From the NCBI GenBank assembly GCA_965219535.1, contig CBDCNV010000001.1:90001-122000 (forward strand): DNA of 32,000 nt, written 5' to 3'. The stretch comes from Opitutales bacterium (GTDB taxonomy: Bacteria > Verrucomicrobiota > Verrucomicrobiia > Opitutales > PNEW01). Both the position numbers and the translations under genes were made by a program. The notes beneath the pieces are model-generated. The model was not told the origin of the DNA. It saw only the letters and a list, made by a program, of their open reading frames with translations, and ran no database searches. Below are positions 1 through 20,586 of this stretch, one piece after another (positions within the stretch are counted from its first letter, which is position 1; each line of letters begins with the position of its first letter).

Positions 1-1
1 G

Positions 2-412
2 TACATACAAGACTTATTCGGGTGGGATGAACAGCTCCAGCTCGGGCGTCACAAAGACCGTTTCTCCCAAGAGAACACGAACCTCATTGTGCAAAACGAT
101 ACTGTAGTTGGATGGATTTCCGTGTTAGATCACGGGGATCACACCAAGATTGACGAGTTGTACGTGCTCCCCGAGTTTCAACGCAAGGGAATCGGAACAG
201 CTGTGCTTCAGGAGGTGATCAATCACGTCAAGCTACTCAATGTTCCGTTGCGCCTTAGGGTTTTAGGTATCAATCGTGACGGCATCCGCTTGTACGAAAG
301 ACTCGGATTTGCAAAACAGCATGAAGACGGGCCGTTTCTGTACATGGAACTGAATCTTCTTAAAAAAGAAACGACAGAACCATGGCAAAAGGGGTCAGGC
401 TCTGCATTCTGA
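2..412 (+). CDS. GNAT-family N-acetyltransferase, 5' end cut by the window edge; paralog of 3685..4185
   Basis: The frame is open from position 2 (YIQDLFGWDEQLQLG...). It is collinear with the 3685..4185 product, and the acetyl-CoA-binding-type motif QRKGIGTAVL is present. The last codons and the stop (410-412) lie inside the left inverted repeat of the RAYT unit. Confidence 0.8.
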   Translation, partial: YIQDLFGWDEQLQLGRHKDRFSQENTNLIVQNDTVVGWISVLDHGDHTKIDELYVLPEFQRKGIGTAVLQEVINHVKLLNVPLRLRVLGINRDGIRLYERLGFAKQHEDGPFLYMELNLLKKETTEPWQKGSGSAF

Positions 413-1438
413 CAGTATAGAGATAAGAACCTTATCTTTTCTTATATCTCCCATTTTAAGAGTCTTAATGGAGCGAGAGATGCTATCGGGGTGACCCATG
501 TTCAGTTGTTTACTAATCCATGGATTGGAGGCATTGCTTTTGCGTTTTAAAATCATGGCAATGACAACTTTCCACGGTGCAGATTTTTTATCATTGGCAA
601 TCTCCTTAGTTCCCTTAGCAAGTCTGTTGAGGTAATTTTTAAGTAATACTTCTGCAGATAGACCATTAATATCACCAACCGCTTTGGCTCCCGGTATTTT
701 ATATTTTAATTCTTTATTAAATTGTTTAAAGAGCTGTTTTTTGAAAGACCTGCTACCGATAACCCAACCTTTACACATTTTGGAAAACTGTAACTCCTTT
801 TGGGCCTGTTCATTCATTGACAGCCATAGGAGATATTGCTCATAACTTTTGTGCCCTGAAGGGGTGTCTTTTAAGCCTCCTATCTCTGACAACCAGCTTT
901 CAAATTGACAAAAGGGTGGTCGCTTTCTCTTCCTGAACAATAAGGGATAACTTGACCAACGATACATTCTTAGTTCATCGACAGACACGATGCCAGCACG
1001 TACCGGATTTAAGTGAATATAGTTAACCAGTGCAGCTAAACCTGGCCCTGGCTCAACAAGCAGAGCATAATAACGACCCTGAAAGAGATGACCACTAACT
1101 TTACGATAACGATTAAACTTATTAGCAAATGTGGATTGGAGCCAGTGCATGCCGAAGATTAGATTTGCGTTGGGCGTTTCTATAGCCAGATGAAAGTGGT
1201 TTCTCATAAGGCAGTAGGCATGTAAAACCCAGTGGCTTTTTTCTGCTCCTAAATATAGACAGTTAAGAAATGTCTGTGCAGCTCCCGCACTTTTAAAAAT
1301 ATCCTGACGATAGTTACCGCGGTTTATGATATGATATATCGCTCCTTCAAACTCGTAGCGTGGGAGTCGTGCCATCATATAAATATACGGCTTACCTTAT
1401 ATCATATTAATGTCAGAACGCAGGGCCTGACCCCTTTT
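387..1438 (-). mobile_element. RAYT/IS200-like unit: a Y1 transposase gene bracketed by 27-bp inverted repeats
   Basis: aaaaggggtcaggctctgcattctgac (387-413) matches the reverse complement of gtcagaacgcagggcctgacccctttt (1412-1438) at 25 of 27 positions. Each arm holds a GTCAG-N10-CTGAC hairpin, and both mismatches fall in the loop. Confidence 0.8.
395..1378 (-). CDS. REP-associated tyrosine transposase (RAYT, IS200-like Y1/HUH) with a C-terminal DnaA_C-like HTH extension
   Basis: HUH motif in RNHFHLAIE, the GHLFQGRY motif, and the catalytic-Tyr motif YIHLNPVRAGIV. The C-terminal segment KVVIAMILKRKSNASNPWISKQLNMGHPDSISRSIK resembles a DnaA C-terminal HTH. The stop codon (395-397) lies inside the left IR. 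Confidence 0.85.
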   Translation of the reverse strand: MMARLPRYEFEGAIYHIINRGNYRQDIFKSAGAAQTFLNCLYLGAEKSHWVLHAYCLMRNHFHLAIETPNANLIFGMHWLQSTFANKFNRYRKVSGHLFQGRYYALLVEPGPGLAALVNYIHLNPVRAGIVSVDELRMYRWSSYPLLFRKRKRPPFCQFESWLSEIGGLKDTPSGHKSYEQYLLWLSMNEQAQKELQFSKMCKGWVIGSRSFKKQLFKQFNKELKYKIPGAKAVGDINGLSAEVLLKNYLNRLAKGTKEIANDKKSAPWKVVIAMILKRKSNASNPWISKQLNMGHPDSISRSIKTLKMGDIRKDKVLISILSECRA

Positions 1439-1461
1439 CTAATCAATTTAATTTTCGCTCT

Positions 1462-3039
1462 TCAGTTGTTTGCAGCGACCTTTTCTGTTTTATATAAAAC
1501 TATTCCCTTTTCATCGTAAAAAGTGATACGCGCTAAGGGCTGCTGCTTCCCTTTTCCCGATTTCACCGTTAAGATTAAGAAACCACCCGTGGGTTCTTCA
1601 TTGTGATAGGGTTGTTTGATTTTACCTTCGGGATCGGAGGAATTTGGATCGCCAGGGAGATAACCCATGGTCGCATTGGCGCCAACCAATGCGCCACAGG
1701 AGAATTCTTCAAACCCTGAAGGATGGATGGCGTGATATTGCCAGTGCCGATCTCCACAGATAAGGTAAAAGTTTTTATCGCGAAAGCCGTTCTCGGTAAG
1801 CCATCGGAAAAAAGCTTCTCCCTCATAGCGAAATCCACCGGGATTAACATGGCTATCGCGTTTCTCATCGCCGGCACCGGGACCGATCATTGGCGTGGCA
1901 GAGAGGAGGAATTTAAATACGGTATCGCTTTGTAACAGTGTTTCTTTAAGCCAATTCTTTTGTTTTAATCCCCAAATGCTTTTATTTGGGCCATCCGGCC
2001 TGTCGTTAGCATCGCGATAATCTCTACCTTCGACAAACCAGATCTGAAGCCAATCATTAACCCTGAATGTTCTATAAGTTACTGGATTACTTTCTTCGGG
2101 ATCAACCACCGGGAGTTGTTCTTGAAACATTCTTATACCCAGCTTCGCTGAGGGGAGTGATCCAGAACCTGATACATGCTCATAAATGTTGGTTTTAGGG
2201 TAATAGTCTAAGTTATAATTGCGCTCCACAAGGTAGGGGTTTATGGGATCGGAATCGTTGAAACGAAAATCGTGGTCGTCTTTCATCCAGTAAGTTGCCA
2301 CTTGCTGAAAGAGATCAACAAATCTCGGCTGTGAGAACTGTTCCTGATATTTTCTCCTTATCTGCTGCTGCGTCTCGGCGCGCCCTACAAAGGGACCATC
2401 ATAATAAACATTATCGCCCGTTCCCACAAAGTAATCAGGTTTGAGCTTTAAGATAGAGACGAGAGCTGGATATCCCAGCAGTTTATCTTCACCGCTGCTT
2501 GGGGGAATCTTTTTTTTCACCGCTGCGGGGGGGAATCTTTGTTTTTCCCGACCTGTGTGGTGAAACCTTGAGTAGTGCATTCCAGTAACGACGGCAAAAT
2601 TAATTTCATCATGAGATTTACCCCCCCCATGGGTCTTAAAATTAGAAGTCATTCCCTTTCCTGTGTTTATGGTATCCGAACCGTAGATAACACGGTAGTA
2701 GTAACGCCTACCCGGATCCAAGTCAGTTATTTTTGTCTTAACAATATAATCGTAATCTGGGACTGCTTTTATCCATGGCGTTCGGAAAGATTCTTTAAAG
2801 TCTGGAGTGGTCGAAATTTCAAAACAAGCCCATCCGGTTAAACCAGGAATCCCCGACCACGATTTATCGAAGAGAGGATTCGATGAAGTTATTCGTGTCT
2901 GAAGAATAACACTGTGATCCGAAACTTCACCAGCCATTTGCCCTTGGGCTAATGAGTATGCCTCCAGAAAACCAGCTCCATACTCTATGGTATATATTGC
3001 CAATGATAAAAAAATTATTAAAAATAATTTCAGTTTCAT
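1462..3039 (-). CDS. phoD: PhoD-like alkaline phosphatase/phosphodiesterase, secreted
   Basis: N-terminal signal peptide MKLKLFLIIFLSLAIY. PhoD-type metallophosphatase motifs GDNVYYDG, WMKDDHDF and CGDRHWQYH. Confidence 0.8.
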   Translation of the reverse strand: MKLKLFLIIFLSLAIYTIEYGAGFLEAYSLAQGQMAGEVSDHSVILQTRITSSNPLFDKSWSGIPGLTGWACFEISTTPDFKESFRTPWIKAVPDYDYIVKTKITDLDPGRRYYYRVIYGSDTINTGKGMTSNFKTHGGGKSHDEINFAVVTGMHYSRFHHTGREKQRFPPAAVKKKIPPSSGEDKLLGYPALVSILKLKPDYFVGTGDNVYYDGPFVGRAETQQQIRRKYQEQFSQPRFVDLFQQVATYWMKDDHDFRFNDSDPINPYLVERNYNLDYYPKTNIYEHVSGSGSLPSAKLGIRMFQEQLPVVDPEESNPVTYRTFRVNDWLQIWFVEGRDYRDANDRPDGPNKSIWGLKQKNWLKETLLQSDTVFKFLLSATPMIGPGAGDEKRDSHVNPGGFRYEGEAFFRWLTENGFRDKNFYLICGDRHWQYHAIHPSGFEEFSCGALVGANATMGYLPGDPNSSDPEGKIKQPYHNEEPTGGFLILTVKSGKGKQQPLARITFYDEKGIVLYKTEKVAANN

Positions 3040-3205
3040 ATATTGTAATCCGTAGATGCAACTTTCTGGTTTATTTTAAATCAATTTATCAATGATCTCA
3101 GAGATTCGATTGATAATTATACTTAACCTCCGCTTAAAGTTCGTCCTTTGTTGATAGGGTAGTCAAGTTAGAATGGTATTTCTTACTTTGAATTTGATCC
3201 TCAAC

Positions 3206-3459
3206 CTAAGGAAGATTAAATTGAGAGGGATCATACCCTCTGAGTCGTATTGCTTTTTTAAGCAACTCCATATCTATCTTGGCCCCACGGGTAATATCAT
3301 TTTTATGAAACCAGCCTTGGTTTAATTCCAAAGCAAATTGCAACTCATCACGTCGCGATATTCAGACAAAGTCCTTACCGTCGCCTCTTCATCCTCACCC
3401 ATGAGGCGGCTGTAACCCTCTACGTCAGCGCTGAGAATGGCCGTTAGCTTGCGTTCCAT
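3206..3459 (-). pseudogene. Remnant of a class III adenylate/guanylate cyclase family gene (N-terminal ~35 codons joined out of frame to a short C-terminal tail)
   Basis: The minus-strand ATG at 3459 gives MERKLTAILSADVEGYSRLMGEDEEATVRTLSEYRDVM, a typical start of a cyclase catalytic domain, and then hits a stop. A second frame continues as ELQFALELNQGWFHKNDITRGAKIDMELLKKAIRLRGYDPSQFNLP*. Neither piece reaches 60 aa, so neither is in the ORF track. Confidence 0.5.
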
Positions 3460-3684
3460 GACTGATAGGTTCCTCTTAGTGTGCACTCTGCACAATTCAG
3501 AACAGATCAGACTATTACTGCTGCACTCTGTGTGTCAATTCAGGGTGGAGCCATTGCCAAAGGTGAGTTCAGAATATGCGTTAGCAAATACTCTTGATCC
3601 TATCGCTTCATAGAATAGGATGCCTAATTGGCAGATGTGTAGAGGCTACCTATGATATGTTAGCGGTTAGACAATTCTACTCGG

Positions 3685-4185
3685 ATGCGATCCATGTTGA
3701 AAAAGAGCATATCTGGTCATGAAGACATTCTGTTGAGACAAGCGTCTGTTTCTGATTTTGACTTAACCTTTTCGATCAAAAAGTCAGCCGGTGGTCAGTA
3801 CATACGAGATGTGTTCGGGTGGGATGAACAAGTCCAGCTCGGCTTTCACGAAAAGCAGTTCTCTCCAGAGAACACTTACCTTATTGTGCAGAACGATACT
3901 ATAGCTGGATGGATTTCTGTGTTCGATCATGAGGATCACACCAAGATTGATGAGTTGTATGTGCTCCCCGAGTTTCAGGGAAAGGGAATCGGGACATCTG
4001 TGCTTCAGGTAGTGATCAATCACGTAAAGTTGCGTGATGTTCCGTTGCGCCTCAGAGTTTTTAAAATCAATCACGACGTTATCCGCTTGTACGAAAGACT
4101 CGGATTTACAAAACAGAATGAAGACGGGCCGTTTCTGTACATGGAACTCATTCTTCCAAAGAAAGAATCAAGAGCAGACAGCTAA
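3685..4185 (+). CDS. GNAT-family N-acetyltransferase
   Basis: 166-aa ORF with motif QGKGIGTSVL and the C-terminal LYERLGF. By eye it is about 85% identical in nucleotides to the partial copy at 2..412. The stop codon is embedded in the first bases (acagcTAAccat) of repeat copy A. Confidence 0.85.
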   Translation: MRSMLKKSISGHEDILLRQASVSDFDLTFSIKKSAGGQYIRDVFGWDEQVQLGFHEKQFSPENTYLIVQNDTIAGWISVFDHEDHTKIDELYVLPEFQGKGIGTSVLQVVINHVKLRDVPLRLRVFKINHDVIRLYERLGFTKQNEDGPFLYMELILPKKESRADS

Positions 4186-4270
4186 CCATCACCTTGCCAA
4201 CTAGCCATTCTCGAGCGTCAGCTACTGATGAGAGCGTTTTGATGGGCTGGGGTATAGAGGGGCTATATAA
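4178..4270 (+). repeat. Family-1 intergenic repeat, copy A (short form with a duplicated 5' decamer)
   Basis: acagctaaccat / aactagccat, followed by the core tctcgagcgtcagctactgatgagagcgttttgatgggctggggtata, then a small hairpin tatag-agggg-ctata. Confidence 0.8.
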
Positions 4271-4392
4271 TTAAGCGCCAAAACACCGTGGTAACTCGCT
4301 GTCGGTGATAAGGGTCAATATTGATTATGAATCAACAACTCCTCGCAATATAATACTCTCAGAACTCAAGACACCTAAGCTTATGTATTTGT

Positions 4393-5568
4393 TTACATGA
4401 GGGGCATGCGGATTTCTCCGGGCTTCCAAAGTCTCAGAAAGTAGTGTCCTAAGCCAGATGCCCCATACATATAGTCGGCTGAGTACTGTCCCGGTTCGTC
4501 TGTAGGCCAAGCGTCTCCTTCGGGTAACTCTTCTCTGTATCCGAAGGCCATCTCTGCAAAGACAATGGCATTCTGCAACCAGGATTTTTCCTCAGTGACG
4601 CGGTAAAGTTCGACGAATAATTCCCCGCACCCTGAAAGACCAATGCATTGGGTTATGTTGTTACGGAAGTCGCCATAGGCGAAGGTAGTGGTACCACATT
4701 GCAGCGCAATTTCATAGTAAGAAGTATCCTCAAATATCTCATAGGCGAGTAGAAATACTAGGCCAATCCCTGCAGAACCATGGCTCCACTGGCAGCGATC
4801 GAGTTCCCTCTTTCCAATAACAATAACGGGGTACCAGTTAAAGCCACCTCTGTCTGGACGTGCGTGCTGAACCAAGGTTGCCAGGATTTCACGCGCATTA
4901 CTTGACCACTTTTCATCCCCTGTAGCCTTGTAGAGTAGAAGGAAGAAATAAGCTATACCCGCGATACCGTGTGCAACCCCGGTATACGGAACGGGACCGA
5001 ATTCTCCATCGGGACGTGCCAGGCAGTGGCAACCCTGTTCATCACGTATCAAGTTTTGATCAATCCAATCAGCGCAACGGATCGCCCCATTTAAATACTT
5101 TCGTTGGTTCGTGGCTTCCCATAACCGTATGAGGAAAAACCCGTTTGATGCTGCGCCACCCATTAAGTCCGTAAAAGGTCCAGGGTCTTCTGTCATGATA
5201 ATCCGAGCGCATTCATCGCAATATTCGAGATATTCATCATCTTGAATCAAACGCCATAGGTCGAGAGCAGCCATGGCAATACCAGTTTTTCCTGTTAGGA
5301 GCCCCCGGGAGAAGCTCTTCTCGTGATCTGTGTACATACACCATCGACAGCAACCGATAGCGAGGTCGAGAGCAATAGCTGTTTCGGTCTGACGGTGGTA
5401 CTCTGTTAAAAACAGACTGATGCCCCCTGAGCCATTAAATAGGTTGTAGCTGTAGTGAGGGTTATTCTCGTAGTCGATGGTTCGCCAACGAATGCCAGTG
5501 GGAACTTTTTCCGCAGTACGCTCGATGAAGCTAAAGACTGATTGGACACCTGTTACCGTTGCTTCCAT
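4393..5568 (-). CDS. LanC-like (lanthionine synthetase C-like, alpha/alpha-toroid) protein with an atypical metal-site motif pattern
   Basis: Seven GxxG-type repeats typical of LanC (NGSGGISLFL, TGKTGIAMAAL, GVAHGIAGIAYFF, WSHGSAGIGLVFL, GLSGCGELF, YGASGLGHYFL). The preferred start is the ATG at 5568 (MEATVTG), preceded by AGGGGG 9 nt upstream. The track's longer ORF starts at a TTG at 5619. Confidence 0.7.
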   Translation of the reverse strand: MEATVTGVQSVFSFIERTAEKVPTGIRWRTIDYENNPHYSYNLFNGSGGISLFLTEYHRQTETAIALDLAIGCCRWCMYTDHEKSFSRGLLTGKTGIAMAALDLWRLIQDDEYLEYCDECARIIMTEDPGPFTDLMGGAASNGFFLIRLWEATNQRKYLNGAIRCADWIDQNLIRDEQGCHCLARPDGEFGPVPYTGVAHGIAGIAYFFLLLYKATGDEKWSSNAREILATLVQHARPDRGGFNWYPVIVIGKRELDRCQWSHGSAGIGLVFLLAYEIFEDTSYYEIALQCGTTTFAYGDFRNNITQCIGLSGCGELFVELYRVTEEKSWLQNAIVFAEMAFGYREELPEGDAWPTDEPGQYSADYMYGASGLGHYFLRLWKPGEIRMPLM

Positions 5569-5706
5569 GAGACATTTCCCCCTTGCAAATTGATGTACTT
5601 CACACGATCCGACCGGCAATTAATTTTATAGAAACGTTGTATTCTCAGAGTTTTCGCTAAGCAATATTAAAGTCGAGGTGCTATGACTTAGTTTTACCCT
5701 TTCTCT

Positions 5707-5777
5707 CCTACAGCTAACCATTCACGAACGCTGACGATTGATGAGAGCATTTTGATGGGCTTAGGTATACATTAGAC
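5707..5777 (+). repeat. Family-1 intergenic repeat, copy B (short form)
   Basis: cctacagctaaccattcacgaacgctgacgattgatgagagcattttgatgggcttaggtatacattagac aligns along its whole length with copies A, C and D. Confidence 0.8.
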
Positions 5778-5834
5778 ACCCCTCTCAAATATTTCCTCAA
5801 TCAATCGATGCTTTCTTTATTCTTATAAACTCAC

Positions 5835-6158
5835 TCACTCCTCAACCCCCATTTTCCTCACAAACGTTGAGTCTTCCCACAGCTGGAGGTCATCGATTTT
5901 TTGGAGAACACGGCCGATATACCGGTCGGTGAGCTCTGACTCGGCAGCGTAATGGGCCCATAGATTGTGCAACTCTTCCGTTGTGTACGCAGAAGCCGGA
6001 CCATAATTCGGGTGCAACATCGGCGTTCCGGTGTAATCCGGGTCATAGCGTTTTACCAGATATTCCGGCGGATCCCAGGGTTCGTGAGGATCAAAAAAAT
6101 CGACCCAGAGGAAAAAGGGACCGCTCTGTCGCGTCCGTGCATATTCAACTCCCTCTTG
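5835..6158 (-). pseudogene. Internal fragment of a sulfatase (alkaline-phosphatase superfamily) gene
   Basis: The minus-strand frame reads EYARTRQSGPFFLWVDFFDPHEPWDPPEYLVKRYDPDYTGTPMLHPNYGP...WAHYAAESELTDRYIGRVLQKIDDLQLWEDS, which matches the central region of sulfatases. There is no N-terminal CxPSR active-site region and no C-terminal domain. An in-frame stop lies just upstream at about 6159. Confidence 0.6.
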
Positions 6159-6361
6159 TCATCGCGAGTCCCGCAAGCGCTGGATGTGGCGATCTAGGGG
6201 GTTGTCAACACACGACCGACATCGCCTGGATTACCAGTCGATTACGCTTCCTTCTCAATGACATGAGAAGTTGCATGATATAGGATACAAAGTAATCCTA
6301 GAGGTTTCCACTTTTACGCATACACGCTTATGCGCATCATCGCATATCCCCTTTAGACATT

Positions 6362-6390
6362 TTGACCTTTTGACAGCCCGCAATTAGATT
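6362..6390 (+). promoter_or_regulatory. Candidate sigma70-like promoter (TTGACC-N17-TAGATT) for the 6401 gene
   Basis: TTGACC at 6362-6367 and TAGATT at 6385-6390 with 17-nt spacing. This would give a very short or absent leader. It is a pattern match only. Confidence 0.25.
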
Positions 6391-6400
6391 ATTCACTTAG

Positions 6401-9400
6401 ATGATTAAAATTTTTAAATATTGCGGGCTTTTTCTCCTCACTGGCTGCTGCATCTTCTTCATTACTTATTTCTGGGGGGCTCTGTTGAAGCCTGAACTGG
6501 AACGCGAACCCATTGTCTACAGTCCGGAGTTGATCAAAGAAACGGAGGAATTGAGAGACATCAGTTTCGGTGAAGAAGATTTATACCAGGTGCAGCACAA
6601 TGTCGACTACAACGAGGGTGAATCTGGCCGTTGGTACCCTAAAGGGGAGTCGCCCATCCTTGCTGAACTGGTAGAAGAGGGAAAACTGCCAACTGTCGCC
6701 GAGCGCGTGGGACCTGAACCGGTTGTCATTCAGGGAATAGACGGTCTTGGTAATTACGGTGGCACCTGGTATCTGGTCACAAATAATCCCCAAACCGTAT
6801 TGGATATTAAAGCATGGATGTCAGGCACGACACTCGTGCGCTGGTCACCATTGGGCTATCCCATCGTTCCCCACATCGCCAAAAGGTGGGAAGTTTCACC
6901 CGATAAAAGAGAATGGACTTTCTTCCTGCGCAAGGGTATAAAGTGGTCGGACGGCCACCCATTCACCGCAGACGATATCCTTTACTGGTGGAACGATGAA
7001 GTGAAACGGGAAGCCATTGCTATCCCTGCCTGGATGAAAGTGAAGGGAGAATGGGGGGAGATACTAAAAATCGACTCTCATACCGTGAAATTTGTTTTCC
7101 CGCATCCTCATGGGTTTCTCCTGGAACGGTTGGCTTCGACAATCGATGTTTTTGCGCCCCGACACTACCTTGAAAAATATCATCCCGAGCTTGGCAATGA
7201 TGCGCTTATCAAAGCTGCGATGAAGGCCGATAAAATTCCCACCGGACTTGCCCTTTACGCTACGCTAAAGCTTACCAACAACCCCGACCACCCCCGCTTA
7301 TGGCCTTGGATCTATCGAACCTACAAGCCCAACCCACCCCACGCTTTTGTCCGCAATCCCTATTACTGGGCCGTCGATACCGAGGGTCGTCAACTGCCCT
7401 ATGTCGACCGTTTTATGATCGATGTAAAAACGGAAAAGCTTGTTCCAATCGCTGCCGCAAATGGCGCCATTACGATGCAAACCTTTAATATCTATTTTTT
7501 ACACTACACTTTATTCATGTCGCAACGCGAAGCAGGGGGATATGATGTTTATCATTGGTACCCGTCAGGGATTACGGAGTGGGGTCTCTACCCGAACCTC
7601 AATCGTTATGTCGATCCTCTTGACCCAAGCTCCCAAAAGAAATGGGAATTGCTTAACAATAAGCGCTTTCGGCAGGCGCTGTCTCACGCTATCGATCGAC
7701 AACAGATTATCGATGCCGTCTACTACGGAGTAGGAGAACCTGCACAAAGTTCTCCGGGCAAAGAATCCATTTTTTACCATGAAAAACTCAGGTCCAGCTA
7801 CGTCGAGTACGACCCTGATCGCGCTAACGAGCTGCTCGATGAACTGGGACTCACGGGTCGCGATGCCAAGGGTTATCGCACCTTTAAAGATGGTGCCCGC
7901 ATGGTTTGGTATTTGGATATAATTCCGAACTATGCTGAAGGTCCCGGACCTTTTGTCGCTGAAGATTGGCAAAAGGTTGGCCTTAATACGATTCAGAGAT
8001 TCCGTTCCGCTAACCTATACTCCGTCGAAAATGCTGCTCGCATCTATGATTTTACCATCTCTGGAAATGAAGCGGAATTTAATCCTTTTGTATCACATGA
8101 CCGTTATTCTCCCGGTTCTGTCGCCGCCGCCGGATTTACATTATGGTATCAACTGGGCGGATTATATGGCAATCCCGAGGCCAATATACCGGGTAGTGTT
8201 GAGCCTCCAGTCGATCACCCCCTGAGACGATCGATGGAGCTGCTCGACGCCGCTTTCAGCCTATCTACCCTGGAAGAACAGAGAGACCTTTACCGAGAAA
8301 TTCAGGATATCGCCGCCGATAATCTATGGAATATAAACATCACCATTGGCCAACCCTGGGTGGTGATCGTGAAGAAGGGTTTTAAAAGCGTGCCGCCCAA
8401 TTCGATTTACGGGGCTATTTATCATAGCATTTCCAATGGCGGACATGAAGCTTACTATTTTGAGAAACCTGAAGATTCACCGGGATCAATCGCCCAGATT
8501 AAACGCGAAATGACGGAAATCACTCCCAAGCCAAGTGCCCTCGATGAGGTCACCCTTGAAATCAGAAGGGGCGGGTCTCTCGGCCGATTAGTCCGCCATC
8601 TGATCCTTGGAATCCTCGCGATGGGGATGATTCTCGTTGGATTTAAACATCCCTATGTGGGACGCCGCTTCCTCATTATGGCGCCTACTTTACTTATTAT
8701 CTCGATCATTTCTTTTACTATCATCCAGTTACCTCCTTCAAATTATATCGATTTAAAAATTTTACAGGCTGAATTAGCGAACGATAATCAAGCTAAAATT
8801 GAGGCGGAGCAGCTGCGCGAGATCTTTCCCCTCGATGAACCGGTCCTTACCCAGTACGCACATTGGCTTGGCCTTACCTGGTTTCTCTCCTTCAAGTCCG
8901 AGGACCAGGGACTGCTCCAAGGTCACCTGGGTTTTTCCATGCAAAGCCGAACGCCAGTAAACGATGTCGTGGGTGATCGCATCCTCCTCACCTTTTTAAT
9001 ATCGTTAGGATCTATACTCTTTACCTGGGCGATCGCTTTGCCCATCGGTGTCTACTCTGCCGTCCGTCAGTATTCGATCGGCGATTACCTATTCTCCTTC
9101 CTCGGCTTTATCGGGATGTGCGTCCCCAGCTTCCTTCTCGCCCTGCTCATTATGTACTGGAGCAATGTTTATTTCGGCATAAGCATGACCGGGATATTTT
9201 CTCCGGAATTCGCGGGTCAGCCCGAGTGGTCCTGGGGCAAGATCGCTGACCTTATGCAACACATCTGGGTCCCCGTCGTCGTGCTTGGGGTATCCGGCAC
9301 CGCGAGTATGATCCGGGTGATGCGCGGTAACCTGCTCGATGAATTGAAAAAACCCTATGTCGTTACCGCATTGGCTAAAGGCGTAAGACCGCTTAAACTG

Positions 9401-9679
9401 CTCGTGAAATATCCCGTGCGCATCGCGCTCAATCCCTTTATCTCCGGGATCGGTACCTTGTTTCCGCAATTGGTTTCGGGCGGAGCGATTGTCGCCATGG
9501 TCTTAAGCCTACCCACCGTGGGCCCCTTGATGCTCGAAGCCCTCATGACCCAGGATATGTACCTCGCCGGTTCGATGCTCATGGTCCTCAGCTTGCTCGG
9601 TGTGCTCGGAACCCTCGTCAGCGATCTCCTCCTCATCTGGCTCGACCCCCGCATCCGTTTTGAAGCTGGTGCGCGGTAG
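6401..9679 (+). CDS. Fusion protein: N-terminal TM anchor, family-5 (Opp/Dpp-type) solute-binding domain and DppB/OppB-like ABC permease domain
   Basis: The SBP_bac_5-like region includes [38 protein letters not shown]. From about aa 745 (nt ~8630) a permease begins: [28 protein letters not shown] ... [18 protein letters not shown] ... [28 protein letters not shown] (EAA-loop region). The ORF is a single uninterrupted 1092 codons. Confidence 0.8.
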   Translation: [1092 protein letters not shown]

Positions 9680-9705
9680 GTGCGAACGCGCGTTTTAGGT
9701 TTTAT
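9671..9705 (+). terminator. Candidate intrinsic terminator overlapping the stop codon of the 6401..9679 gene
   Basis: GCGCG (9671-9675) pairs with CGCGC (9687-9691), followed by gttttaggttttatgtttt. The stem is short with an 11-nt loop, so support is weak. Confidence 0.35.
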
Positions 9706-9726
9706 GTTTTAAGTGTTAAGTAACGA

Positions 9727-9805
9727 GGTGGAGCGGGCTGTCCCTAGCACGTTTCTTATTTCATATATAAAAAAAATCTAAACGCGCTAGGGACGGCGCG
9801 CTGCG
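9727..9805. repeat. Family-2 palindromic (REP-like) element, copy R1
   Basis: ggtggagcgggctgtccctagcacgttt ... aaacgcgctagggacggcgcgc. The arms are imperfect reverse complements around an AT-rich spacer. Confidence 0.75.
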
Positions 9806-9833
9806 ATTCATCGCTGCTTCCCATAGACCCCCC

Positions 9834-10519
9834 TTACACCATGATGTAGACTATATAGACCGTTCGGATAACAAGAGACAGCCCACTTATATCTGTGAGA
9901 CCGAGCCCGGTGACGCCTTTCTTTTTGATAGGTTGTGGAATTGCAATAAATAATAGTGGGATAATAGCAAAAAGGGCTGTAAATACATCAATCAGAAGAA
10001 CACCTACAGTGGACATAAGACCTAATAAGAATGCCGCAAATGGTGCAGAAATTATGTTCAGTCCTCCAAAAATCACCGCTCTTATACCATGAATATTTGA
10101 AAGATATTTATCGGGAATCATGAGTGGCATTGTTGCCATCATAGCTGGACTATGGAACCCTCCACCTACTGCACGAATAAACATGATGAGGTATACCATC
10201 CAAATTTAAACCTTATCGATATAGAAGAAGTATGCTAAAAACAAGGTTGCCAGAGCAATGATGCTGTCCGACAGCAGCATTATTTGTTTACGATTCCAAC
10301 GGTCGACTAAAGTGCCAATAATTGGACCTATTACTACTTGTGGAAAAATCCGAATAGAGCAGCCATACTTAAAACTGTCGCTGAATTAGTTTCCTGAACT
10401 AACCACCAAACTAAAGCAAATTGAACAATTTGACTGCCTAGTGATGAGACAGTCTGACCAGAAAAAAGGACAAAAAATACTTTAATAGAATGCGATTGAA
10501 CTTGAGCTTCGTTTGCCAA
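9834..10519 (-). pseudogene. Disrupted and 3'-truncated MFS transporter (MFS_3/EntS-like)
   Basis: The N-terminal half of an MFS is spread over three frames: (TTG)MANEAQVQSHSIKVFFVLFSGQTVSSLGSQIVQFALVWW..., then PQVVIGPIIGTLVDRWNRKQIMLLSDSIIALATLFLAYFFYIDKV*, then MVYLIMFIRAVGGGFHSPAMMATMPLMIPDKYL.... It ends after about 6 TM segments, next to repeat R1. Confidence 0.75.
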
Positions 10520-10596
10520 AAGTTGATCAGCTTATATTTATTCTTATCACACCCGCAAACCTTATAAGAATGCTACTCATGCTTGGTGCAAGCGCA

Positions 10597-10703
10597 CCTA
10601 CAGCTAACCATACTCGAGCGGCAGCTAATGATGAGAGAGTTTTGATGGGCTGGGGTATACTTTGGGATATACCCTGAACAATTTAACTGTTCAGATTACT
10701 AGC
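10597..10703 (+). repeat. Family-1 intergenic repeat, copy C (long form: core plus two hairpins)
   Basis: Core cctacagctaaccatactcgagcggcagctaatgatgagagagttttgatgggctggggtata. Hairpin 1 pairs gggtata with tataccc (10653-10674). Hairpin 2 pairs ctgaaca with tgttcag (10674-10694). The element ends with attactagc. Confidence 0.85.
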
Positions 10704-10827
10704 TTAACTTGTGGTATATTTAACTAACTTGCAATGTGGCAAGACTATCGCTAACCAATATGTTAGACGGCAGAATAATCGTAGAAGACTGCTCGAAAAC
10801 CCGAATCCAATGGGGAAAACGTAAAAC

Positions 10828-11349
10828 GTGTCTAGTATTCAGGATAGAATAATTCGTGCTGCGAAGTTGGACGCCAAGCTCTATGAGGAGGTCGAGGCCG
10901 ATCAAGGTGCGATGGGTCAGGCCATTGCCGTAGTTGTCTTATCTGGAGTCGCAGCTGGGATAGGAAACTCCGCAAACGGGGGTCTTTCGGGAACCATCAT
11001 CGGCACGATTGGAGCCCTCATTGCATGGTACGTCTGGGCCCTTCTAACCTATTTCATTGGAACAAGATTTCTACCAGAGCCTCAAACCAAAGCGGATCTC
11101 GGAGAGCTGCTGCGAACCATCGGTTTCTCGAGTGCACCCGGGTTGATTCGTGTCTTGGGAGTCATTCCAGGCTTCACGAATCTCGTCTTTTCTGTTGCAG
11201 GCATCTGGATGCTGGTCGCGATGGTGATTGCCGTCCGTCAGGCGCTGGATTACCAGAGCACGTGGCGTGCGTTCGGCGTCTGCATAATCGGCTGGGTCGT
11301 ACAGGTCGTGATTATCTTGATCTCGCTCTCGCTCTTCGTCTCATCATGA
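10828..11349 (+). CDS. Yip1-domain family integral membrane protein
   Basis: GTG start. The N-terminus IIRAAKLDAKLYEEVEADQGAMGQAI followed by five hydrophobic segments is the typical architecture of the bacterial Yip1 family. Confidence 0.7.
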   Translation: MSSIQDRIIRAAKLDAKLYEEVEADQGAMGQAIAVVVLSGVAAGIGNSANGGLSGTIIGTIGALIAWYVWALLTYFIGTRFLPEPQTKADLGELLRTIGFSSAPGLIRVLGVIPGFTNLVFSVAGIWMLVAMVIAVRQALDYQSTWRAFGVCIIGWVVQVVIILISLSLFVSS

Positions 11350-11396
11350 ATAACTCGCGTCAACTGGAGTGGCCCAAAAAAATCTCACCAGCCCCA

Positions 11397-11504
11397 CCTA
11401 CAGTTTAGTATTCTCGAGCGTCAGCTAGCGATGAGAGCGTTTTGATGGGCTGGGGTGTATACTTTGGATACCCCCTGAACGAATTAACCGTTCAGATTAC
11501 TAGC
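11397..11504 (+). repeat. Family-1 intergenic repeat, copy D (long form)
   Basis: By eye about 85% identical to copy C over ~107 nt. Hairpin 2 is ctgaacg/cgttcag (11475-11495), which differs from copy C by a compensatory base-pair change. Confidence 0.85.
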
Positions 11505-11536
11505 GAATATTAATTAAGTTCGCTCACTAAGGCGCA

Positions 11537-11794
11537 TTACACCCACATATTTCTTACAGCGATGTCAAAGCTGGTGACAATACCGGTGCCCTCATTTTCC
11601 CATGCCGTCTGATAATACTTATAACGTGGCCCGTTAACTTTACCATCTTGAATTACAACATATCCGCTATGATTTTTCGGTGGTATAATGACCATGTAAG
11701 GGGAATTCGTATTCTTATCGGGCCTGTGAGTATTCCATGCAAAGTCTTTGCCCGACTGTAACGTCAATAGTTGCTGCTTCGCTTTATCCTCCAT
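11537..11794 (-). CDS. Hypothetical protein (85 aa)
   Basis: ORF only; no motif recognised. It lies between repeat copies D and E. Confidence 0.45.
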   Translation of the reverse strand: MEDKAKQQLLTLQSGKDFAWNTHRPDKNTNSPYMVIIPPKNHSGYVVIQDGKVNGPRYKYYQTAWENEGTGIVTSFDIAVRNMWV

Positions 11795-11887
11795 TAATAA
11801 AGTCTACTAGCTTCTTAGGTGTTTTGCAAACAATGATACCAGATGCTTGATAATCCACAAACCAATTGCATCCTTGATGATGCCCTA

Positions 11888-11940
11888 TCTCAAACTTAGC
11901 ATTCTTCGAGCGCCAGCTAGACGTGAGAGAGTTTTGATGC
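11888..11940 (+). repeat. Family-1 intergenic repeat, copy E (3'-truncated, most divergent)
   Basis: tctcaaacttagcattcttcgagcgccagctagacgtgagagagttttgatgc. Similarity stops after gttttgatgc. Confidence 0.65.
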
Positions 11941-12147
11941 CACTTTCGCTAATGAGGATGGCATTGACATCAGTATTACAGTGGAAGAGATGGTAATTGA
12001 GTAATCCTAGCTTTAATTACCACTGCTTTCGGGACGCTGAGTTTCCCTTTTACCTATGCGGGTTTCAAGGGCAGTTGCCAGATAACAGAATATTTGGCAA
12101 CTATTGTGAATTTTCAACTACTCGCGATAGGTTCTGAGATTAAAATG

Positions 12148-12537
12148 TTAATTTATATTTTTGCTTTGGGAAAGAATTACTTTGATTACTTGTTTAACAT
12201 CATTCGATGATAGAATGGAATGAAGAGTTCTAATAAATTCTTCTTCATTTTCGACTTTAAATTTTTCATTTGATATTTCGTTAAAAATTTTTAGAGGATA
12301 AAGAAAAAGTGGCTGTTCTATACGGAGCACGGTTACACTATAGTCGTCTAAATTTTGTGCTAAGATATCAAGTCTGATAGAGATTGTATTTGCAGATATG
12401 ATGGGCCAAACTTGTCCTCTAAGAGTTCCATTTGTCTGTGTTCCTAAAATTTCTGCTTGCTTTTTGAGTATTGTAAATGGCGGTGTTATGTCATCACCAG
12501 TTGGCAGATCACCCCATAAATTTTCATCTTTATTCAT
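12148..12537 (-). CDS. Hypothetical protein (129 aa) in a visibly AT-rich segment
   Basis: ORF only; no recognised domain. Composition is clearly more AT-rich than the flanking genes. Confidence 0.5.
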   Translation of the reverse strand: MNKDENLWGDLPTGDDITPPFTILKKQAEILGTQTNGTLRGQVWPIISANTISIRLDILAQNLDDYSVTVLRIEQPLFLYPLKIFNEISNEKFKVENEEEFIRTLHSILSSNDVKQVIKVILSQSKNIN

Positions 12538-12774
12538 GATAGCACCATCCTTTCTATTTCAATTTCAAAATCAAGGGGAAAATGGGCATCGCCAATGTCA
12601 TAATGCGTATGATCGGGATTCAGTTAAAGAACAGCTATATCTGTAGAAATATTAGTGACAATTATCACCTAATCACCTACATGAGGAAATGTTAGCTAGA
12701 AGCTATAAACCTCCTCGGCACCAAAGCACCGAAAAGGATTTTATAATTCTTGGAGATATGCATAGAGCTAAAAC

Positions 12775-14184
12775 TTAACTGGAGGGTAAGGGCCAATTAA
12801 GTGAATTATCTCGGGCCGTCTTCAGATAGTTCTCTATTATTCGCACTACTTTAGGATATTGAGAGGCAAGATTATGATTTTCGGATAGATCATTTGATAA
12901 ATCATATAATTCTAAAGGGGCATCAGGGTCTTGACTAAATGCTTTCCAATTTTGCCAACGCACAGCTTGTTGAAAACCTCGCTCTTGAAATACCTGATCA
13001 ACCTTCCAGTGATTTTCCCAGTAAAGAAATCGATTGGGGTCATTTGGTGATTTCCCAAGAAGTAACGGCAACGCACTATTACCGTCAATGCCTGAGGGAG
13101 ATGTGATTCCAGCCAGTTCAGCCGCCGTGGGAAGAAAATCAGCAAAGTACCACACGGCATTACTTACTTCTCCCTCTTTTACCTTCCCCTTCCATTTTAC
13201 AATCATGGGAACTCGAATACCACCTTCTAATAAATCGCCTTTGTGACCACGCAAGGGCCCATTATTATCGAAACGATCTTCGAATGATTTGAGAGCCCCA
13301 TTATCAGAACTGAAGAAGACAATAGTGTCCTCATCGAGTTTCAGTTCTTGAAGCAAACTGAGGATACGTCCCACATCTGCATCCATGTATGAAATCATTG
13401 CCGCAAATATTTTCTCTTTCATTCCCCAAGGTTTATTTGAATAAGGGTCAGTATCTGGGACAGATAATTCGTCGTGAGGTCCATGAGGTATCGTTAGAGG
13501 AAGATAGAGGAAAAATGGAATATCTTTATGCCGTCGAATAAAATTTATCGCAAAATCAGTAAAGACATCCTGCGAATAAGTTTTTTTATTTAAGCCCTTA
13601 TTACCTTCGAGGTAAAATATGTCATCATTACGCCAAAGAAATTCAGGGAAAAACTCCAGGGCATGATCCTGATTGAGATAACCTAACCATTCGTCGAAGC
13701 CCTGTTTCGTAGGAAGGCCCGTCGTTTGAGGTTCCCCCAAACCCCATTTCCCTGAGATACCTGTCACATAACCCGCCTTTTTAAGGACTTCAGCTACCGT
13801 TATGTTTTCCAATTCAATAGCGACACGCCCTTCAGGTCCAATACCACCAATTTTAGCATGATTGCCGCGAAGTCGAGTATGACCGAGGTGCTGACCGGTC
13901 ATTAAAACGTTGCGGGATGGAGCACAGATAGGTGAGCCCGCGTAGCATTGAGTAAAACGTGTTCCCTCCCTGGCAAGCTGATCCAAATGTGGTGTTTTAA
14001 TTAGTTTTTGACCATAAGAACCTAAATTCCCATAACCTAAGTCATCAGCTAAAATAAAAATGATATTTGGTTGTCTTACTATTGATTCACCAGGACTAGA
14101 AGCTAAAATATCAAAACAGTTTATCAGGATAGTGGATGCGGCGGCGTATATTAATTGTTTAAGAAATCTACGGCGATCATTCAT
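12775..14184 (-). CDS. Arylsulfatase-family (formylglycine-dependent) sulfatase, exported via a Tat-type signal
   Basis: Twin-arginine N-terminus MNDRRRFLKQ. Active-site motif SPICAPSRNVLMTGQ. Also DDLGYG and SSDNG motifs. Confidence 0.9.
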   Translation of the reverse strand: MNDRRRFLKQLIYAAASTILINCFDILASSPGESIVRQPNIIFILADDLGYGNLGSYGQKLIKTPHLDQLAREGTRFTQCYAGSPICAPSRNVLMTGQHLGHTRLRGNHAKIGGIGPEGRVAIELENITVAEVLKKAGYVTGISGKWGLGEPQTTGLPTKQGFDEWLGYLNQDHALEFFPEFLWRNDDIFYLEGNKGLNKKTYSQDVFTDFAINFIRRHKDIPFFLYLPLTIPHGPHDELSVPDTDPYSNKPWGMKEKIFAAMISYMDADVGRILSLLQELKLDEDTIVFFSSDNGALKSFEDRFDNNGPLRGHKGDLLEGGIRVPMIVKWKGKVKEGEVSNAVWYFADFLPTAAELAGITSPSGIDGNSALPLLLGKSPNDPNRFLYWENHWKVDQVFQERGFQQAVRWQNWKAFSQDPDAPLELYDLSNDLSENHNLASQYPKVVRIIENYLKTARDNSLNWPLPSS

Positions 14185-14318: not shown

Positions 14319-14999
14319 ATGAAACCACTTGCCTACCTAAAGGACCGAGCACACGACCTCATGCAGGGACGTGAAGACCGGCTTGAATCTGGTGCCATAG
14401 ACGAAGAGACCTGGTATAAAGAGATATCCGCAGTTATCACGCCTTCGTACCTGGCCGGTGACAACCCACGTCGCCAGTCTGGGCACAGTGGTGACGAAGC
14501 ACGGTGGAAGCAGGCCAGAGGGTTGATCGGCGATGCATTTTATAAAAATGGGACTTTTTTAGATGTGGGATGCGCGAATGGTTACCTCATGGAATCGATA
14601 CAGCGATGGAGCCTGGAGAGGGGTTATGAGATCGAACCCTACGGGGTCGATATCTCACCTGAACTCGCGGTCCTCGCGAGGGAGCGATTGCCCCATTGGG
14701 CAGATCGAATCCATACCGCTAACGCTCTCTACTGGAAGCCCACAGTTCAATATACATACGTTCGAACCGGTTTGGATTATGTTCCACAACGGCGATATAA
14801 GGATTTTATTCAGCACCTGCTGAAAAATGCCGTGCTGCCGGGAGGGCGGTTGATTATCGGGACCTATAACGAAGAAAAGGAGTTAAAGCTCAATGAAGAT
14901 CACTTGACGGGTTTGGGCTTTACGATAAATGGCCGATCAGAACGTACCCATAGTGATCCCCGCCTCTCTTACAAGGTGATTTGGATGGATAAATTATAA
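14319..14999 (+). CDS. Class I SAM-dependent methyltransferase
   Basis: SAM-binding motif I FLDVGCANGYLME. The size and layout fit a small-molecule methyltransferase fold. Confidence 0.75.
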   Translation: MKPLAYLKDRAHDLMQGREDRLESGAIDEETWYKEISAVITPSYLAGDNPRRQSGHSGDEARWKQARGLIGDAFYKNGTFLDVGCANGYLMESIQRWSLERGYEIEPYGVDISPELAVLARERLPHWADRIHTANALYWKPTVQYTYVRTGLDYVPQRRYKDFIQHLLKNAVLPGGRLIIGTYNEEKELKLNEDHLTGLGFTINGRSERTHSDPRLSYKVIWMDKL

Positions 15000-15084
15000 A
15001 GCTTCGTCTTCGCTTGCCACGTCGTAGACTAATGGTGAAGACGGGTCTGCCTCATCGTCTGCGTCTTCTTTTATTAATTACAAT
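14999..15084 (+). repeat. Family-3 repeat unit U1 (AAGCTTCGTCTTCG... type)
   Basis: aagcttcgtcttcgcttgccacgtcgtagactaatggtgaagacgggtctgcctcatcgtctgcgtcttc recurs at 15309 and in part at 17490 and 27398. It has an internal cgtcttc/gaagacg stem. Confidence 0.75.
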
Positions 15085-15089
15085 ATCAT

Positions 15090-15196
15090 GGTGGAGCGGG
15101 CTGCCTGTCCGACATAGCCTTGGCGACGGCTGATCCCTAGCACGCTTCTTCAATTATAGCTGCAAACCTGCGCCCCTTCAGGGCGCGTACTACACC
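15090..15196. repeat. Family-2 palindromic element, copy R2 (interrupted variant)
   Basis: ggtggagcgggctg, then a 30-nt insertion, then tccctagcacgcttctt. The right arm is replaced by the GC hairpin gcgccc-cttca-gggcgc. A ccagggg/cccctgg hairpin follows. Confidence 0.6.
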
Positions 15197-15308: not shown

Positions 15309-15413
15309 AAGCTTCGTCTCGCTTGCCACGTCGTAGACTAGTGGTGAAGATGGGTTTGCCTCATCGTCTGCGTCTCTATTGTCATTGCGAGGAGTGAAGC
15401 GACGAAGCAATCC
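15309..15413 (+). repeat. Family-3 repeat unit U2 plus the attgtcattgcgagg...cgaagcaatcc module
   Basis: Direct repeat of U1 about 310 nt downstream. ctattgtcattgcgagga (15376-15393) is the reverse complement of tccctcgcaatgacaatag at 15604-15622. Confidence 0.7.
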
Positions 15414-15589
15414 AGGGGAATGTCTGTTGAGTAATCACAGTCCCTGGACGTAAAACTTCATTCAGAAGTTCGATTGCCAAACTAAAGTGTATATCAAGCT
15501 ACTCATGTTTCTTAGCGGTGATTGTTTTCCGTAACCACAATGACTATACGCCTGGAATGGAAGATGTCGCTCCGTTCGGTAGCCGCGCT

Positions 15590-15622
15590 CGGCTGATAGC
15601 ATCCCTCGCAATGACAATAGGG
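15590..15622 (+). repeat. 33-nt unit CGGCTGATAGC-N-TCCCTCGCAATGACAATAGGG
   Basis: The same unit, in the same orientation, occurs at 27548-27580. Confidence 0.7.
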
Positions 15623-15653
15623 CCGCGCTCCTTTAGACCCTTTTTCCCATTCT

Positions 15654-17399: not shown

Positions 17400-17489
17400 C
17401 ATCGAGAGATAGCCGCAGCTATTGCCCCCTCGTACTTAGCAGGTGACAATACGCCTCGCTTACAAGGTGAATTGGATGGATAAACTGTA
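17400..17489 (+). pseudogene. Internally deleted remnant of a paralog of the 14319..14999 methyltransferase
   Basis: 17403-17455 aligns with 14420-14472 (EIAAAIAPSYLAGDNTP against EISAVITPSYLAGDNPR). 17456-17489 aligns with the last codons and stop of the methyltransferase (14965-14999). The same family-3 repeat follows both copies. Confidence 0.65.
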
Positions 17490-20582: not shown

Positions 20583-20586
20583 TGAT

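Follow-up and report, generated by a model that had tools for sequence, protein, structure and literature searches.

What kind of sequence lies between neighbouring genes when the genes are small, functionally unrelated and differ from one genome to the next? The question is raised by a 32-kb stretch of DNA from an Opitutales bacterium (phylum Verrucomicrobiota; contig CBDCNV010000001.1, positions 90,001 to 122,000 of the forward strand), which we call the window. The window contains five co-oriented copies (A to E, + strand) of a repeat. An original prediction, made from the sequence of the window, saw in them an integron cassette array without an integrase (a cluster of attC sites that has no integron integrase, or CALIN) or, alternatively, a family of repetitive extragenic palindromes (REPs) or miniature inverted-repeat transposable elements (MITEs). 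We found that synteny breakpoints and the presence or absence of gene modules in related genomes fall exactly at the core of this repeat. The repeat occupies every junction between small unrelated genes whose identity varies from genome to genome, so it probably marks the sites at which genes come and go. It is a cassette-like junction, yet it fails every attC criterion that gave a definite outcome. Tentatively, and with a little less than even confidence, we regard it as a non-integron recombination junction that has a central crossover, is served by an unlinked enzyme and belongs to a clade of uncultured Opitutales.

The repeat unit and its distribution

The five same-strand copies are confirmed. 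A 47-nt pattern occurs with at most one mismatch at 4210-4256, 10613-10659 and 11413-11459, where no occurrence is expected (100 shuffles). A repeat search gives four 65-nt copies that are 78-100% identical, including 5705-5769 (78%), and a fifth, of 34 nt, at 11906-11939. With a five-copy profile, nhmmer finds exactly copies A to E in the window, all on the + strand (E = 1e-16 to 9e-26; the runner-up has E = 0.26), and a covariance model recovers the same five. The number and strand of the copies in the window are as in the original prediction. The unit, given there as about 65 nt, is about 95 nt long, copy E is a half copy, and a sixth co-oriented copy, Z, lies on the source contig 5.9 kb to the left of the window, directly adjoining the stop codon of a convergent Ig_7-family gene.

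Anchored alignments of the copies reveal a bipartite unit, in which a left half and a right half flank the nearly invariant core TGAGAGCGTTTTGATG. The left half reads (C)CTACAGCTAAC-CA-TTCTCGAG, followed by a variable segment of 13-15 nt and (A)T. The core, TGAGAG-CGTTTTGATG, is nearly invariant over 11-16 nt. The right half consists of GGGCTGGGG, then GGGGTAT-loop-ATACCCC and then TTGG; copies C, D, L3b and L4a have a common right-hand extension (CTGAAC..GTTCAG plus ATTACTAGC). Mean identity to the consensus is highest in the core (0.89, versus 0.57-0.63 for the flanks and the variable segment), in a set of genomes that share 73-80% identity in their linked GNAT proteins.

Each half could form a hairpin. 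In the left half, TTCTC could pair with GAGAG around a variable inner hairpin, giving an imperfect hairpin 1, and in the right half GGGGTAT could pair with ATACCCC (hairpin 2); the core is probably unpaired. Hairpin cells are paired in 76% of cases, versus 37-57% with slid partners (17, then 34 copies, among which orthologous copies are not independent of each other). Folds of single sequences surpass shuffles only weakly, with z from 0.5 to -2.6. Since compensatory changes do not exceed those in shuffles, both hairpins are plausible but not demonstrated.

The repeat is restricted to a clade of uncultured Opitutales, and essentially nothing is found elsewhere. An exact-pattern scan of 185,579 species genomes matched only two Opitutales metagenome-assembled genomes, one of them a 4.49-Mb chromosome, at two loci each, and each matching 8-kb locus has further copies that the strict pattern misses. 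Given that this pattern catches 4 of the 10 known copies in loci L001-L004 yet nothing else in the two genomes, copy number is low, and the copies, probably about ten per genome, are clustered. A pattern scan of metagenomes gave one weak partial match only (L005). Contigs reached via homologues of three window proteins (the GNAT protein and the products of a 129-aa and an 85-aa open reading frame, ORF) added eight further loci with copies. In 216 kb from about 10 Opitutales assemblies, a covariance model of the family makes 37 matches, corresponding to 34 distinct full or half copies; OY829953 has at least 7 copies in one 20-kb locus and 2 in another. Adjacency of L004 and L002 was considered and rejected: the reading frame across the join is not homologous upstream, and L022 places L004 in a 20-kb locus without L002.

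We found no description of the repeat in the literature searched or in Rfam, in agreement with the suggestion that the family is undescribed. Rfam 15 gives no match at gathering scores in the window, and none at a repeat even at E<=10 (positions 4000-12300). ARAGORN detects no tRNA or tmRNA from which the repeat could derive.

Module polymorphism and breakpoints at the core

Single genes with repeat copies on both sides are, in the window, those for a LanC-like protein, a Yip1-domain protein and the 85-aa ORF; the annotation of the window confirms these three predicted intervals. The same bracketing occurs in relatives around CorA, GYD, SnoaL, RDD, cyclase and NAT genes and ORFs of 225 and 151 aa. 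In all, full copies bracket at least 10 unrelated single genes.

Three conserved anchors are joined to different modules in related genomes, so single modules bounded by the repeat are, as the original prediction expected of a cassette array, polymorphic between relatives. The right-hand anchor is 96% identical in L003 and 95% in L011, whereas the other shared genes, of which few were compared, are 72-86% identical; this difference argues for recent lateral exchange. Immediately to the left of this anchor is the 85-aa module in the window, a GYD gene in L003 and a GNAT gene in L011. The last of these loci follows the window over positions 3678-4244, which hold GNAT and the left part of copy A, and its match resumes at 11924. 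In other words, L011 is the window minus the 7.7 kb between A and E, with one hybrid copy remaining. Copies E, L3c and L11 have right flanks that are 95-98% identical and left halves that are 60-65% identical.

The left-hand anchor includes a 70-nt noncoding element (…CACAATTCAGAACAGATCAGACTATTACTGCTGCACTCTGTGTGTCAATTCAGG…) that is about 90% conserved 5′ of cyclase genes in three assemblies (window 3480-3555, L013 4420-4500, L002 6480-6540). In L013 and L002, this element is directly followed by a repeat copy. The first module after the anchor is RDD in L013, an unrelated 225-aa gene in L002, GNAT in the window and the 85-aa gene in L022 and L023. In the window, the adenylate/guanylate cyclase gene is cut to a 45-codon N-terminal fragment. 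The far-left anchor, a TPR gene and copy Z, has a 72% match to L003 1280-2104.

The 85-aa module recurs from core to core in five contexts in four assemblies. Window 11437-11939, from core D to core E, is 87.5% identical to L022 10354-9865, with both ends inside cores; the neighbours of the module in L022 are a cyclase gene and an Ig_7 gene. Three further matches, in L023, L025 and at another site of L022, likewise stop at the E core to within one base. OY829953 has three paralogous 85-aa modules, whose proteins are 80, 64 and 62% identical to that of the window and which are each antisense to the flanking repeats.

Half copies locate the breakpoints. Those with only a left half end between GAGAG and GTTTTGATG: at GAGAGCG (L022 14400), GAGA (L012), GAGCGCA (L3a) or GTTTTGATG itself (E, L3c and L11). 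Those with only a right half start at GCGTTTTGATG or TTGATG, reading GCGTTTTG at L013 4491 and L022 10314 and TTGATG at L023 9082. In copy E, the family match ends directly after GTTTTGATG and is followed by the last 25 codons of an Ig_7-family gene. The core is thus joined to codon -25 of a gene that is intact in L010, which implies that a repeat copy recombined with non-repeat sequence. Simple inversion was rejected as the source of this junction, given that no reverse-complement right half follows the Ig_7 fragment. In L022 9818-17212 (OY829953.1, about 1.506-1.513 Mb) there are two opposed sub-arrays, with three copies on the minus strand and four on the plus strand. Between them lies a 239-aa resolvase-family gene (13189-13908), and a repeat copy occurs about 10-15 nt past its stop codon. 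With breakpoints and module differences between related genomes placed at the repeat core, the locus behaves as the gene-shuffling hotspot that had been suspected.

The link between the GNAT gene of the window and the repeat recurs in other genomes. A homologous GNAT gene followed by a repeat copy occurs in L011-L014, and the linkage is kept in five other assemblies. The stop codon of the window gene (4183-4185), thought to lie inside copy A, is in the extra ACAGCTAACCAT motif immediately 5′ of the left half of that copy. A second GNAT paralogue has a tail that retains ACAGAACCATGGCAA, which is the start of the repeat's left half, and is interrupted by a unit containing a REP-associated tyrosine transposase (RAYT) gene. 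The 3′ end of the Yip1 gene and copy D recur as a remnant in L023. The interval between B and C was expected to hold decayed or orphan genes. It does hold a fragment of a transporter gene, but its other ORF, a transporter fusion, is intact; it is also called on the source contig and is therefore no artefact of the window. Table 1 gives the features and their positions.

Table 1 Repeat copies, modules and anchors in the window
Feature	Position	Strand	Details
Second GNAT paralogue	1-386	+	83-85% identical to 3798-4185
Left-hand anchor	3322-3555	-	Cyclase fragment 3322-3459; conserved 70-nt upstream element 3480-3555
EcKL-kinase gene 3′-end remnant and intergenic region	3552-3650	+	Ragged left end carried with the GNAT module
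GNAT acetyltransferase module	3685-4185	+	Ends at copy A
Copy A	4178-4275	+	Found by pattern, repeat search, profile and covariance model; extra ACAGCTAACCAT motif 4178-4189, left half 4190-4228, core TGAGAGCGTTTTGATG 4229-4244, right half 4245-4275
LanC-like module	4393-5619	-	Between copies A and B
Copy B	5705-5790	+	Core TGAGAGCATTTTGATG at 5742-5757; most diverged among the full copies
B-C interval	6401-10199		Two ORFs (next two lines)
SBP_bac_5/ABC-permease (BPD_transp_1) fusion ORF	6401-9679	+	1092 aa, intact; B-C interval
MFS transporter fragment	9834-10199	-	B-C interval
Copy C	10595-10705	+	Core 10632-10647; possible hairpin 2 at about 10651-10672
Yip1-domain module	10828-11349	+	Between copies C and D
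Copy D	11395-11505	+	Core 11432-11447; right-hand extension as in copy C
85-aa orphan module	11537-11794	-	Between copies D and E
Copy E	11887-11939	+	Left half and core only; core 11924-11939; junction of the array with the truncated Ig_7-family gene
Right-hand anchor (fixed)	11906-12636		Core, Ig_7 fragment and 129-aa ORF (12148-12537, minus)
Ig_7-family 3′ fragment	11927-12004	+	Last 25 codons (ESFDATFANEDGIDISITVEEMVIE, then stop); fused to copy E; homologue intact in L010

We also noticed other elements in these genomes. A second repeat family, unrelated to the junction repeat, is a GC-rich long inverted repeat (AGGTGGAGCGGGCTGTCCCTAGCACG...CGCGCTAGGGACGGCGCGCTG) found after gene ends (window 9726-9814, 27427-27509, 15089-15120, 15582-15625 and 27540-27583; L010 2359-2438). 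It is 82% conserved in another assembly, and its Rfam matches are chance microRNA-like hairpins only. A third family, in 41-65 nt pieces that are 88-95% identical (window 14961-15085, 15319-15375 and 17452-17543), occurs on both sides of a PEP-CTERM protein gene (15654-17189). Tandem 491-aa SBP_bac_1 paralogues (20587-22062 and 22205-23680) lie upstream of two ABC permease genes, and their 3′-terminal regions share 76% identity across 300 nt (20582-20881 and 22200-22499).

Two observations concern the surroundings of the Ig_7 fragment. An 80-nt noncoding element with the palindrome TTGCCA-N14-TGGCAA lies between this fragment and the 129-aa gene (12023-12102). Its four copies in L010 (7214-7295, 8657-8736, 9485-9564 and 12128-12198) adjoin Ig_7-family genes and a tandemly duplicated 129-aa gene. 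In addition, Ig_7, Kelch and FG-GAP proteins of these genomes have a common C-terminal domain of about 100 aa that ends in NEDGDDITVEVDEVTIE before the stop codon (L008 16567-16866, L010 12281-12818 and 18259-18358, L001 340-650, window 11927-12004). It may be a lineage-specific sorting or anchoring domain.

Candidate explanations for the junctions

According to the recombination-junction reading that we prefer, a mobile module would begin with a right half-site of about 45 nt (GGGCTGGGG and the possible hairpin), continue with a single gene, which may face either way, and close with a left half-site of about 45 nt that has the possible imperfect hairpin. Recombination would occur between the halves, in the nearly invariant core of 11-16 nt. 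With a crossover there, two direct copies could delete or excise the intervening DNA, leaving one hybrid copy, and a circular module with one complete site could enter at a resident copy, which would give back one copy on either side. The enzyme would act in trans and would not be encoded beside the arrays. The anatomy of the repeat, the polymorphic modules, the hybrid copies and the concentration of breakpoints in the core are observed; that the exchange is site-specific, and not the product of ordinary homologous recombination, is our inference, as are the circular intermediates and the identity of the enzyme. In favour of this reading are the bracketed single genes, the differing neighbours of conserved anchors, the discordant left and right halves, the core-to-core recurrence of the 85-aa module, the half copies broken at the core, the conservation of the core, the few and clustered copies and the high identity of the right-hand anchor. 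The broader claim, that Opitutales have an undescribed gene-cassette system analogous in function to integrons, in which single genes travel with two half-sites, enter and leave through site-specific recombination within the 16-nt core of a bipartite site of about 95 nt and depend on a recombinase encoded elsewhere, is in our estimation possible but doubtful.

Several observations weigh against our preferred reading. No recombinase recurs across the loci (about 215 kb from about 10 assemblies; in L001-L004 only the longer ORFs were scanned against Pfam). The resolvase gene occurs only at L022, and a Phage_integrase gene only in L025, about 2.3 kb from a copy. The ragged ends of several modules cut neighbouring genes, leaving EcKL, cyclase, MFS, Ig_7 and Yip1 fragments, and such ends fit sloppy or illegitimate recombination better than a precise system. 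Read directly, the core has no clear dyad symmetry of the kind typical of core sites of tyrosine or serine recombinases, and compensatory changes in the hairpins stay at or below the level of shuffled controls, whether 17 or 34 copies are counted. The core is also where crossovers would fall under ordinary homologous recombination, if this took place at the longest stretch of identity.

Two candidate enzymes were rejected. The 129-aa protein has no family match and is absent from most arrays. The L022 resolvase is not a common enzyme, as it is found at that locus only; it is 21% identical to a resolvase of L014. Compared with the crossover site of Hin and Gin, the reverse complement of the core (CCATCAAAACGC) agrees at 8 of 12 positions with a hix half-site and the second half-site, which such a site requires, agrees at only 5 of 10; we regard this as a lead only.

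The main rival to a dedicated recombination site is a passive conserved intergenic element of low copy number in an accessory region. It would have some ordinary local role (as terminator, RNA-stability element or protein-binding site, for example), and its neighbourhood would be rearranged by RecA-dependent or illegitimate recombination between copies, with no dedicated enzyme. We consider this explanation improbable as a whole but serious. It would account for the lack of a recombinase consistently linked to the loci and for ragged module ends with gene fragments. Genes on the same strand end 7-62 nt upstream of a copy, hairpin 1 is followed by UUUU in the manner of a terminator, and the linkage of GNAT and repeat is vertically conserved, including one core-genome context in L012. 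However, only four T follow hairpin 1, four of the six copies at the source locus (B, C, E and Z) occur without a co-directional gene ending upstream, and a terminator scan of 3500-12800 called none of the five copies there. No consensus promoter was called at the repeats either. Homologous recombination has a poor substrate in about 95 nt of 60-85% identity, but full copies enclose each of at least 10 different single genes; junction E joins the core to non-repeat sequence within a gene; and the greater conservation of the probably unpaired core than of the stems is left unexplained by a passive element. Inspection also led us to reject two functions within the repeat. A hammerhead ribozyme is suggested by CUGAUGAG in copy A, but other copies do not conserve this motif and GAAA is missing; a small ORF in the right half (MGWG...) changes frame between copies as the loop varies in length. 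The copies might instead descend by segmental duplication from the region between convergent GNAT and Ig_7-family genes, which we judge quite unlikely. In L014 a copy occupies precisely the interval between GNAT and a convergent Ig_7 fragment, there are six cases of a copy following GNAT, and copies abut the stop codon of convergent Ig_7-family genes at six loci (Z, L1a, L10, L13b, L14 and L022, the last equal to L024). Nevertheless, most copies adjoin neither family, the genes bracketed by full copies, at least 10, are unrelated, and left and right halves reassort to give mosaic copies.

Transposition by single-strand (HUH) enzymes is an unlikely explanation, but it is attractive because TTGAT precedes the right halves, as it does at the left ends of ISDra2. 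On single-stranded DNA this element employs subterminal hairpins, and its insertions lie 3′ of TTGAT (PMC2806898). The modules would then be tandem non-autonomous IS200/IS605-like elements that grow head to tail. In detail, and with equally little likelihood, the left end would be GGGCTGGGG with hairpin 2, the right end would be hairpin 1 with ...GTTTTGAT, and insertion would occur 3′ of a TTGAT supplied by the right end. TTGAT precedes the right half in most copies, and every internal junction reads TTTTGAT(G) followed by GGGCTGGGG. Furthermore, the intact L010 homologue encodes S-I-D-A-T-F, so that, if its codons are ATT GAT, TTGAT would stand at the break of junction E. Three of the loci (window, L022 and L024) contain or adjoin a Y1 transposase gene. 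However, most loci have no Y1 gene and no cognate transposase was found. The Y1 gene of the window (395-1378, minus strand, 327 aa) is RAYT-like (58.9 bits versus a cut-off of 80 for REP-associated transposases) and has its own ends: its unit (387-1438) has 31-nt inverted repeats at 387-417 and 1408-1438 (GGGGTCAGGCYCTGCRTTCTGACA) and was inserted right after the second GNAT paralogue. A 47% identical RAYT homologue in L022 is flanked by different 30-nt inverted repeats, GGGTCAGACTGCGAATTCTTTGATT, and neither set of flanking repeats is the module-junction repeat. The two possible hairpins of the repeat are unlike each other and lack covariation support, whereas the ends of IS608-type elements resemble each other; and right-only half copies retain GCGTTTTG, more than a 5-nt target. 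The same RAYTs bear on the predicted REP/MITE alternative, which finds no support given the unit of about 95 nt, the few copies per genome clustered at one or two loci and the presence of other repeats at the local RAYT. As a separate observation, the motif flanking the L022 RAYT forms a pair resembling a REPIN (a REP doublet) in L003 4603-4791.

The integron reading, under which the repeat would be an atypical attC site (a hairpin with an AAC...GTT foot, cut between G and TT) and the integrase IntI would be encoded elsewhere, now appears highly improbable. The layout of the array and its genes (GNAT, SnoaL, GYD and small orphans) do suggest cassettes. GTT at the 3′ foot of hairpin 1 is nearly invariant and the breakpoints are at or next to it, AAC occurs at the 5′ foot in about half of the copies, and integrons have been reported in Verrucomicrobia (PMC4889954). 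However, of the boxes that mark the two ends of attC, 5′-RYYYAAC-3′ and 5′-GTTRRRY-3′ (PMC5027507), the former is present in 2 of 16 copies and the latter in none, because the box on the crossover side is GTTTTGA in nearly all copies; the six canonical box pairs in the window are all away from the repeats. The AAC-to-GTT span is only about 36 nt, or about 44 nt if 7-nt boxes are included at both ends, versus 57 nt for the shortest attC that we collected, and the part that should be an unpaired central spacer is paired here. Sites of the attC type are 57-141 nt long and have their crossover at the 3′ edge, such that about 6 nt of the site begin the next cassette. By contrast, conservation of the repeat runs for about 45 nt on each side of the breakpoint. 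Genes of the modules face both ways; in about half of the single-gene modules (LanC, the 85-aa family, GYD, cyclase and NAT) the gene runs antisense to the repeat.

A model search agrees with this. From 15 usable attC sites of class 1 integrons on six plasmids, 13 were used for a covariance model, R1, which was built for this analysis and is not the model of IntegronFinder. On the plasmids, R1 recovers all 13 training sites, three short untrained sites at 29-52 bits (one of these duplicates a trained site) and, weakly, two long ones. It has no match at E<=10 in 172 kb comprising the window and ten related loci. With filters off, it yields nothing but noise: its best match in window positions 1-13000 has 10.6 bits and is not at a repeat, and copy A is the only copy matched (6.8 bits, E = 4.4). 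The predicted absence of an integrase holds as well: the annotation gives no integrase or tyrosine recombinase in the window or in the fully annotated 10 kb to its left, although the window does contain the RAYT-like Y1 transposase.

Significance and comparison with known systems

We know of no well-understood system other than integrons that stockpiles and shuffles single-gene cassettes, and integrons are defined by one family of recombinases and one kind of site. If the cassette-system claim is true, the independent architecture would mean more than one evolutionary origin of modular gene shuffling. It would offer a new recombination site and an enzyme to seek in a phylum known mostly from metagenomes, and would explain a hypervariable locus in these genomes. 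The cargo includes acetyltransferases (one of them Antibiotic_NAT, of the aminoglycoside N-acetyltransferase family), a LanC-like protein and several orphans. Even if the element is passive, the repeat is a precise breakpoint marker that could serve to follow the turnover of accessory genes in Opitutales populations.

Among known systems, attC arrays and CALINs share with the present arrays direct, co-oriented junction repeats between small unrelated genes, a gene content (GNAT, SnoaL, GYD and orphans) like that of chromosomal integron cassettes, hybrid junction copies whose two sides have different histories, and, for CALINs, the absence of a neighbouring integrase. A further similarity is the conserved GTT next to the crossover, where a possible hairpin has its foot. 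Unlike attC, the repeat has no RYYYAAC/GTTRRRY boxes and is not scored by the covariance model. Its hairpin is too short and is paired where an unpaired spacer is expected, and its crossover is central, with conserved sequence on both sides, rather than at the 3′ edge. Unlike integron cassettes, the genes face both ways, and one genome has two opposed sub-arrays.

REPs and REPINs are likewise short, possibly structured, lineage-specific intergenic repeats, and RAYT-like genes occur in three of our loci. However, a REP is a palindrome of 20-40 bp (PMC3733652), and the present repeat is bipartite and much longer, with clustered copies (probably about ten per genome) instead of tens to hundreds of scattered ones, and with RAYT genes that are flanked by different repeats. 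The resemblance to IS200/IS605 elements (ISDra2 and IS608) lies in strand specificity, dissimilar left and right ends with a possible subterminal hairpin each, the lack of terminal inverted repeats and of target duplication and, for ISDra2, TTGAT immediately 5′ of the putative left end. Unlike those elements, the modules have no cognate short TnpA gene and carry ordinary cellular genes, the conserved sequence of half copies exceeds a 5-nt target and, unlike in IS608, the two possible hairpins are dissimilar.

A comparison can also be made with integrative elements that form tandem arrays at one chromosomal site by means of a recombinase of the host, for example integrative mobile elements exploiting Xer (IMEX), which are inserted at dif. 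Our repeat lacks a dif-like dyad symmetry in its core, the modules are single genes of 0.5-1.5 kb instead of phages or plasmids, and there are several array loci per genome. By contrast, both have a bipartite site with a central crossover and, on our preferred reading, regenerate a full site on both sides at each integration, and both form arrays in direct orientation out of modules that carry no recombinase.

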